Assembly (NCBI GenBank): GCA_023140175.1
Contig: JAGLMD010000020.1
Coordinates: 1-51,483 of the forward strand
Source: Nanobdellota archaeon
GTDB lineage: Archaea > Nanobdellota > Nanobdellia > Woesearchaeales > WJIZ01
Reading direction: 5' to 3'
Length of the DNA stretch: 51,483 bases
Positions 42,359-42,492 of the stretch are shown in pieces. The notes beneath the pieces were generated by a model. That model was not told the origin of the DNA, searched no databases, and saw only the letters and a program-made list of their open reading frames with translations. A program made the position numbers and the translations under genes. Numbering within the stretch: position 1 is the first letter of the stretch; every line of letters starts with the position of its first letter.

Positions 42359-42492
42359 GGGGCTATGGGGTAGCTTGGACTTATCCTTTTCGCTTTGGGA
42401 AAAATAGCTTTTCTTCAAAAAAGCGGATGACCCCGGTTCAAAAAGCCCTTAATAATTACAACATTAGGGCTATGAAAGTCCGGGTAGCCCCA
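42359..42492 (+). tRNA. tRNA-Pro (anticodon UGG, tentative) with two introns: canonical 37/38 (~22 nt) and non-canonical T-loop (~36 nt, about position 59/60)
   Basis: Hand fold:
- Acceptor stem: GGGGCTA (42359-65) with TAGCCCC (42485-91), discriminator A.
- D-arm: U8, then GGGT/TCCT stem with loop AGCTTGGACTTA (A14, G18G19, A21).
- Anticodon arm: stem TTCGC (42389-93) with GCGGA (42423-27), loop TT-TGG-G...A.
- T-arm: stem CCCGG (42432-36) with CCGGG (42480-84, G53-C61), T-loop TTCAAA.
- The T-loop is interrupted by a hairpin-forming insert, AGCCCTTAAT...ATTAGGGCT.
- No encoded CCA.

The isotype is less certain than the tRNA call. Confidence 0.65.

Follow-up and report, generated by a model that had tools for sequence, protein, structure and literature searches.

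The main finding of this work is that positions 42359-42492 (plus strand) of the window, a stretch of 51,483 nucleotides (nt) from contig JAGLMD010000020.1 of a Woesearchaeota (DPANN) archaeon recovered from a cold-seep metagenome, very probably constitute a functional gene for tRNA-Pro(UGG), a reading to which we assign a probability of about 0.93 on the basis of the sequence and its comparison with relatives. An initial annotation of the window had proposed a tRNA of this identity split by two inserts, at 42400-42421 (22 nt) and 42443-42478 (36 nt). Removal of both inserts restores the cloverleaf and leaves 76 nt that ARAGORN calls as tRNA-Pro(tgg); this call on the spliced 76-mer, the bulge-helix-bulge (BHB) motifs at the junctions and comparative covariation all uphold the proposal. 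Exon 1 (42359-42399, plus strand, like the other parts of the gene) covers tRNA positions 1-37, that is, the acceptor 5' strand, the D arm, the 5' strand of the anticodon stem and the loop bases U32 U33, the anticodon U34 G35 G36 and then G37. Exon 2 (42422-42442) covers positions 38-59, with A38, the 3' strand of the anticodon stem, a 4-nt variable loop, the 5' strand of the T stem and T-loop bases 54-59 (TTCAAA), and exon 3 (42479-42492) supplies positions 60-73, with U60, the 3' strands of the T and acceptor stems and A73. The CCA end is not encoded in the gene.

The spliced molecule shows an acceptor stem of 7 bp, all of them Watson-Crick, a D stem of 4 bp (GGGU/AUCC), an anticodon stem of 5 bp (UUCGC/GCGGA) that closes the loop UU-UGG-GA, and a T stem of 5 bp (CCCGG/CCGGG) that closes the mature T-loop UUCAAAU, together with the 4-nt variable loop and the discriminator A73. 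The conserved bases expected of a tRNA had already been pointed out in the initial annotation, and U8, A14, G18G19, A21, the G53-C61 pair and T54-T55-C56 were indeed all found in the spliced sequence, as was A58. In Archaea, the elements by which prolyl-tRNA synthetase identifies tRNA-Pro are G35, G36 and A73, with the pairs G1-C72, G2-C71 and G3-C70. In the ARAGORN structure, the anticodon UGG sits in a loop of 7 nt, U33 is present, position 37 is a purine, and every one of these identity elements is found.

The BHB motif consists of an outer helix, a 3-nt bulge, a 4-bp helix, a second 3-nt bulge and an inner helix, and it is cleaved after the second of the three bases in each bulge. This mode of cleavage is consistent with the account in PMC3239211. 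Inspection of both junctions revealed that each can be drawn as a 3-4-3 BHB motif. The geometry places the second intron (42443-42478) at T-loop position 59/60: the 5-bp T stem forms the outer helix, U54 U55 C56 A57 pair with UGAA (42473-42476), the bulges read A58 A59/A on the 5' side and A G/U60 on the 3' side, the slash marking the cut, and the inner helix has 6 bp (AGCCCU/AGGGCU). This motif is contained in the minimum free energy (MFE) fold of the 134-nt precursor (-47.3 kcal/mol; z = -3.2 against shuffled sequences). The hairpin that the initial annotation had ascribed to this insert is real but imperfect, with the 6 bp of the inner helix followed by a mismatch. The layout copies that of a canonical intron, with a 7-nt loop on a 5-bp stem, pairing of loop bases 1-4 with the 3' part of the intron and cleavage between loop bases 6 and 7. 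The first intron (42400-42421) lies at the canonical position 37/38, and its BHB, drawn by hand, takes the anticodon stem as outer helix, pairs U32 U33 U34 G35 with CAAA (42416-42419) and has the bulges G36 G37/A and A A/A38. Cuts fitting the MFE helix GGGAAAA/UUUUCUU were also considered for this intron and were rejected, because they would leave an anticodon loop of 14 nt; position 37/38 is therefore the sole reading of intron 1 that yields a tRNA.

Comparison with relatives supports a spliced intron in the T-loop. When 40 related genomes belonging to the same order were searched at the DNA level, the exons turned up as separate pieces, and more loci were obtained through a protein-anchored search of public contigs (Candidatus Woesearchaeota, Nanoarchaeota, Nanoarchaeia); aligning the mature sequence to these loci in a splice-aware manner gave 51 distinct tRNA-Pro(UGG) genes, the identity of exon 1 to the relatives being 79-90%. 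The T arm of each was parsed blind to any intron pairing, by a fixed rule (six loop bases, insert, one base, T stem). An insert at 59/60 is present in 44 of the 51 orthologues and absent from seven, and the inserts, 16-132 nt long, are largely unrelated in sequence and show no multiple-of-three bias in length (13, 16 and 15 introns per length class). Counted over genes that are mutually related, so that the pairing and covariation figures overstate the number of independent events, the four bases preceding the last two intron bases pair with positions 54-57 in 174 of 176 cells in register, all four pairs of the central helix form in 42 of 44 genes, registers slid by one or two bases pair only 72-102 cells with zero genes having all four, and base 57 covaries with its intron partner (A:T in 32 genes, G:C in 11, A:C in one). 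An inner helix of 3 bp, either exactly in register or with one additional base, occurs in 31 of the 44 introns, against a mean of 5 and a maximum of 11 when the interiors are shuffled. A constant pairing register combined with an unconserved sequence is what a functional BHB would be predicted to show. The 37/38 intron is found in about 18 of the 51 orthologues, most of these introns ending in CAAA, CAAG or CAGA plus 2 nt, complementary to UUUG. What is new here is the order-wide conservation of the predicted 59/60 intron in one orthologous, syntenic gene, with covariation in its BHB. Extra inserts of 27-62 nt were seen at other places in some orthologues, namely at 3/4 in the acceptor stem (L007, L026), at 7/8 (L062, L101) and in the D loop (L021, L022, L023, L038, L066).

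A functional gene is also what the codon usage of the genome calls for. The assembly (2.07 Mb, 184 contigs, 34.7% G+C) is scored as 100% complete with 0.42% contamination, and neither BLAST with the mature sequence nor a separate DNA search found a second Pro(UGG) gene in it, while CCA makes up 36% and CCG 13% of the proline codons in long open reading frames (ORFs). Across the gene, the DNA contigs of four cold-seep samples, all from one study, show the same sequence, with no joints and no intron-less allele, an identity that adds little since one of the four runs may be the source of this DNA. A further match was noted near a contig end (C107:1-160, minus strand), where 13 nt, GGGGCTATGGGGT, correspond to the 5' end of tRNA-Pro from the acceptor 5' strand to D-stem position 13; it may mark where a third tRNA-Pro (CGG), heavily interrupted, begins, or be due to chance.

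Several observations weigh against the reading as a functional, spliced gene. The D arm is the weakest element of the cloverleaf, needing either a G-U pair and a 2-nt spacer or a U13-U22 mismatch. The BHB conformer of intron 1 is 10.5 kcal/mol less stable than the MFE fold, with an inner helix of only two A-U pairs, and the motif of intron 2 is not textbook strict, with an extra unpaired A (42472) between the inner and central helices. The listed runs, four from one study, are all DNA, so that splicing and co-transcription are inferred and not observed. On such grounds the locus could be taken for a decaying tRNA-Pro pseudogene, a former gene disrupted by two insertions from which nothing is spliced; that standard finders make no call, that the BHB of intron 1 differs from the MFE fold and that the locus is known here from DNA alone would all fit. 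We nevertheless consider decay highly improbable, given a genome scored as complete with heavy CCA use and no other Pro(UGG) gene found, universally conserved bases and stems that are all intact, an insertion point and a pairing register that are kept, with covariation, in 44 of 51 orthologues, and contigs of four samples that are identical across the gene.

The failure of the finders has an explanation of its own. ARAGORN reports no tRNA in the raw DNA of the window, and none at 42359-42492 when the whole genome is run with -i; Rfam gives for the unspliced DNA no family at gathering score and no tRNA match up to an E of 10. These misses are expected because neither program models introns in the T-loop, and the failure at this locus is due to the T-loop intron, not to an absent gene. 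The whole genome yields only 21 tRNAs above the Rfam threshold and, by ARAGORN with intron search, 29 tRNAs, several of them doubtful and none for proline. Standard pipelines thus overlook the tRNA-Pro(UGG) gene and place a spurious ORF over the locus. This ORF (42271-42582, 103 aa) had been dismissed as an artefact in the initial annotation, and rightly so. In favour of a real protein-coding gene stand its 103 uninterrupted codons and its TTG start. Pfam yields no match for it, however, the ORF overlies the promoter and the entire tRNA and overlaps the first 71 nt of rpl37ae in a different frame, and the insertions of 16-132 nt by which the orthologous regions differ, free of any multiple-of-three bias, are incompatible with it; the odds of a coding function here are close to nil.

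The 59/60 intron of tRNA-Pro(UGG) does not stand alone in this genome. We searched the genome for G53-T-T-C-R-A followed, after 0 or 9-220 nt, by a matching T stem, together with an acceptor stem of 7 bp, and found 11 genes whose T-loop insert ends in a perfect complement of positions 54-57 and a twelfth with 3 of 4 pairs, none of the other insert-bearing candidates of the scan having all four. At least 12 tRNA genes of the genome, tRNA-Pro(UGG) included, thus carry 59/60 introns. The further genes with a perfect complement are located at C8:6897-7075(+), C16:727-858(-), C49:36-159(-), C58:1080-1266(+), C62:2543-2687(+), C99:7190-7343(+), C122:20883-21026(-), C131:8365-8495(+), C134:32791-32916(-) and C166:28660-28778(+), and the gene with 3 of 4 pairs at C183:16224-16349(-). 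Several of these eleven hold other introns too, and their isotypes are partly decoded; combinatorial removal of BHB introns followed by ARAGORN gave ambiguous isotypes, so that we rely on the count of the 59/60 signature and on a few identities read by hand. The 59/60 introns of the genes on C62, C122 and C166 are clearly related to one another (37 of 44 and 34 of 44 positions identical; z = 14 and 7.6 against shuffled sequences), which suggests intron copying between different tRNA genes. Among the identities read, the gene at C8:6897-7075(+) (= L028:298-476) is a tRNA-Pro(GGG) with three introns, of 26 nt in the D loop, 44 nt at 37/38 and 33 nt at 59/60, and a two-intron version of it (L029) occurs in G002, a relative of the same family. 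The gene at C16:727-858(-) is, by hand reading, a probable tRNA-Trp(CCA) with a 37/38 intron of about 42 nt and a 59/60 intron of 16 nt; its long intron holds GATGA and CTGA, resembling the box C/D guide described for tRNA-Trp introns of Archaea.

Introns at such a position raise the question of the enzyme that removes them. The splicing endonuclease EndA is encoded at C113:23303-23884 on the minus strand (194 aa, 97 bits; PF02778 at residues 25-89, PF01974 at residues 100-186) and the ligase RtcB on contig C110 (517 bits). No second EndA-like gene was found in this genome by PF01974, by PF02778 or by a tblastn search for paralogues (E < 1). The best solved matches of EndA are the α subunit of Nanoarchaeum equitans (3IEY_A) and the α4 enzyme of Methanocaldococcus jannaschii (1A79), to which residues 28-194 align with just two single-residue gaps. 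A PF01974 search of 41 genomes of the order, the present one among them, gave a single hit in 39, one extra weak hit in another and no hit in the last; the single-hit ORFs are 82-246 aa long, all but two of them 175-246 aa. By gene content, therefore, EndA is predicted to be α4-like. Multiple non-canonical introns had led the initial annotation to expect a broad-specificity endonuclease, and a check of the EndA type in the genome was suggested on that account; the check returned a single-unit, α4-like gene with no second EndA-domain gene beside it, and broad specificity is not evident from it. EndA adjoins, in divergent orientation, a gene whose metallo-beta-lactamase product gives a hit to the tRNase Z domain PF13691 (C113; L001:1474-2058 on the minus strand and L001:2163-3056 on the plus strand).

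If EndA is of the plain type, it could be objected that the 36-nt T-loop insert is not removed by it at all, and is either retained or lost by another route, for instance as what is left of a mobile element. According to the classical rule, as quoted in PMC3239211, α4 enzymes cut only the strict motif at the canonical position; the motif here has one extra bulged A, and the related T-loop introns in different tRNA genes hint at mobility. Retention of 36 nt would, on the other hand, wreck the interaction of the T-loop with the D-loop, and both the 3-4-3 geometry and the covariation are conserved at the exact register that EndA needs. Moreover, 59/60 introns of ARMAN-2 are cut in vitro by archaeal EndA (PMC3239211), and EndA is the sole splicing endonuclease gene found, present in 40 of 41 genomes. 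We accordingly give very little credit to a route that bypasses EndA.

Previous studies describe systems that resemble this one in part. In ARMAN-2 (Ca. Micrarchaeum), pre-tRNA-Cys(GCA) has a 59/60 intron and pre-tRNA-Pro(GGG) has introns at 53/54 and 59/60 (Fujishima et al., 2011, PMC3239211), a 59/60 intron being cut in vitro by the ε2 EndA (PMC3239211). The likeness extends to the DPANN affiliation, a 59/60 BHB intron, proline tRNAs among those affected, several introns per gene and many disrupted tRNA genes. ARMAN-2 belongs to a phylum-level group other than the Woesearchaeota, its EndA is a three-unit ε2 enzyme with a special loop whereas the one found here is single-unit and α4-like, and its tRNA-Cys intron has a relaxed hBH motif whereas the 59/60 motif described here retains the 3-4-3 core. 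In the Thermoproteales, multi-intron tRNAs are common (Sugahara et al., 2008, as reviewed in PMC4033280), and the resemblance lies in tRNAs with as many as three BHB introns, canonical and non-canonical in position, in genes hidden from ordinary finders and in related introns of different tRNA genes that suggest spread; PMC3239211 cites a proposal of intron spread between tRNA genes for the Thermoproteales. These organisms are Crenarchaeota and have a heterotetrameric (αβ)2 EndA with a Crenarchaea-specific loop, whereas in our genome no β subunit was found and the alignment to the M. jannaschii EndA shows no loop insertion. Closer in lineage, Kaneta et al. (2018, PMC5829648) described an α4-type EndA with an insert named 'L3' in DPANN, linked to disrupted tRNA genes. 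Their study covered one Woesearchaeota and one Pacearchaeota genome, noted more tRNA gene disruption, and stated that incomplete predicted tRNA sets imply unidentified disrupted genes in need of manual curation. The tRNA-Pro(UGG) gene is one of the hidden disrupted genes implied by that statement. An insertion of the L3 type, as far as the available text defines it, was not located in the present EndA, which differs from the M. jannaschii enzyme by two single-residue gaps. Already known, then, are multi-intron tRNAs and 59/60 introns in ARMAN-2 (PMC3239211) and multi-intron tRNAs in the Thermoproteales (PMC4033280); added here are the abundance of 59/60 introns in this genome, the lack of a visible EndA insertion relative to classical α4 enzymes and a conserved linkage to rpl37ae.

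This linkage is the second aspect of the locus that deserves attention. The mature 3' end at 42492 precedes the ATG of rpl37ae at 42512 by 19 nt, exactly as had been noted, and the spacer (42493-42511, plus strand) lacks both a TATA box and any run of four or more T. Upstream, a putative archaeal promoter occupies 42313-42326 on the plus strand (-46 to -33 from the mature 5' end), with GTAAGC, resembling a transcription factor B recognition element (BRE), followed by the TATA box TTTATAAA; about 21 of 25 relatives have a box of the (gtaagc)TTTATAAA type equally far ahead of their orthologous tRNA. Box and spacing are consistent with a BRE/TATA promoter and a leader of about 10 nt. Downstream, all on the plus strand, follow rpl37ae (42512-42790, ribosomal protein L37ae, 92 aa; PF01780, E = 2.9e-24), rpoP (42792-42929, RNA polymerase subunit P/Rpo12, 45 aa; PF03604), a Pcc1-like gene (42926-43156; PF09341), the gene for prefoldin beta (43165-43545; PF01920) and a gene of the UPF0147 family (43549-43797; PF03685). 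The order tRNA-Pro(UGG), rpl37ae, rpoP, (pcc1), pfdB recurs in nearly all relatives, and the spacers that separate the tRNA from rpl37ae, mostly of 7-30 nt, are free of a TATA box, also where the T-loop intron is missing.

Co-transcription of the tRNA with the rpl37ae cluster, the mRNA being freed by 3' processing of the tRNA, would be the most economical reading of this arrangement, and we think it probable, though well short of assured. It is weakened by some relatives in which a T run comes right after the tRNA, or a longer spacer holds its own TATA box before rpl37ae; because of these, linkage need not mean one transcript everywhere. Another possibility is that rpl37ae has its promoter inside the tRNA gene and forms a separate transcription unit. 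The initial annotation had pointed in this direction to TTAATAAT (42449-42456) in the second intron, an A/T-rich octamer 56-63 nt ahead of the ATG; archaeal promoters can overlap upstream genes, and a separate TATA box does stand in the longer spacer of some relatives, such as L025. The intron sequences are unconserved, however, several of them being GC-rich or of 16 nt only (L010, L011), and loci that have no T-loop intron (L017, L013) keep rpl37ae 16-24 nt after the tRNA, with GC-rich exon at the TATA site. The octamer does not generalise as a promoter because intron-less relatives keep short, TATA-free spacers, and the tight spacing kept without a T-loop intron, or with GC-rich introns of 16 nt, disfavours it; we regard an internal promoter as unlikely.

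Tightly spaced tRNA and protein genes have well-known bacterial counterparts. In bacterial tRNA-mRNA operons, such as thrU-tyrU-glyT-thrT-tufB of Escherichia coli, one promoter serves all genes and tRNA processing separates the RNAs. The locus described here is like that operon in having a tRNA gene directly upstream of a gene of the translation apparatus, a likeness that is an analogy only, and it differs in being archaeal, in having one intron-containing tRNA and in a shared transcript that is so far deduced.

On the other side of the promoter lies the divergent gene for the peptide chain release factor aRF1 (41076-42176, minus strand; PF03463, PF03464, PF03465). The aRF1 match in locus L103 (1501-3003) spans 1503 nt for 364 residues, and for about a dozen loci (L100-L111) the match as listed is limited to roughly the first 180-190 residues; the aRF1 of some relatives may contain an insertion such as an intein or an intron.

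We propose the following sequence of events for tRNA-Pro(UGG). Transcription from the TATA box, about 35-40 nt upstream, would yield the 134-nt precursor behind a short leader, and the precursor would carry two protein-spliced BHB introns, of 22 nt at 37/38 and of 36 nt at 59/60. The single EndA would cut within the 3-nt bulges and RtcB would join the exons, two enzymes that are encoded in the genome and whose cleavage and ligation we infer. At the second intron the T stem would act as an anticodon stem, T-loop bases 54-57 pairing with UGAA as bases 32-35 do in the canonical case. RNase P, tRNase Z and the CCA-adding enzyme would finish the ends of the tRNA. Transcription from the tRNA promoter would read on through rpl37ae-rpoP-pcc1-pfdB, and the 3' processing of the tRNA would release the mRNA. 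A more far-reaching hypothesis, which we advance tentatively and at less than even odds, is that the 59/60 intron of tRNA-Pro(UGG) is ancient, order-wide and vertically inherited, one of at least a dozen per genome, all of which may be processed by a plain α4-like EndA; and that the tRNA also serves as 5' punctuation of the rpl37ae-rpoP-pcc1-pfdB transcript, its 3' processing making the 5' end of the mRNA. A plain EndA would suffice under this hypothesis because the T arm, by mimicking the anticodon arm, presents a near-strict BHB.

The presence of many non-canonically placed introns together with a single-unit EndA only would support motif geometry, and not position or subunit type, as the limit on what EndA can cut. 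The 'missing tRNAs' of Woesearchaeota and similar DPANN genomes are, at least partly, a detection artefact and not biology. The conserved linkage of tRNA-Pro and rpl37ae offers a simple testable case of possible archaeal tRNA-mRNA co-transcription. If the more far-reaching hypothesis is true, the Woesearchaeota locus would represent an archaeal counterpart of tRNA-punctuated transcripts, and no specificity loops would be needed in EndA for the removal of non-canonical introns.

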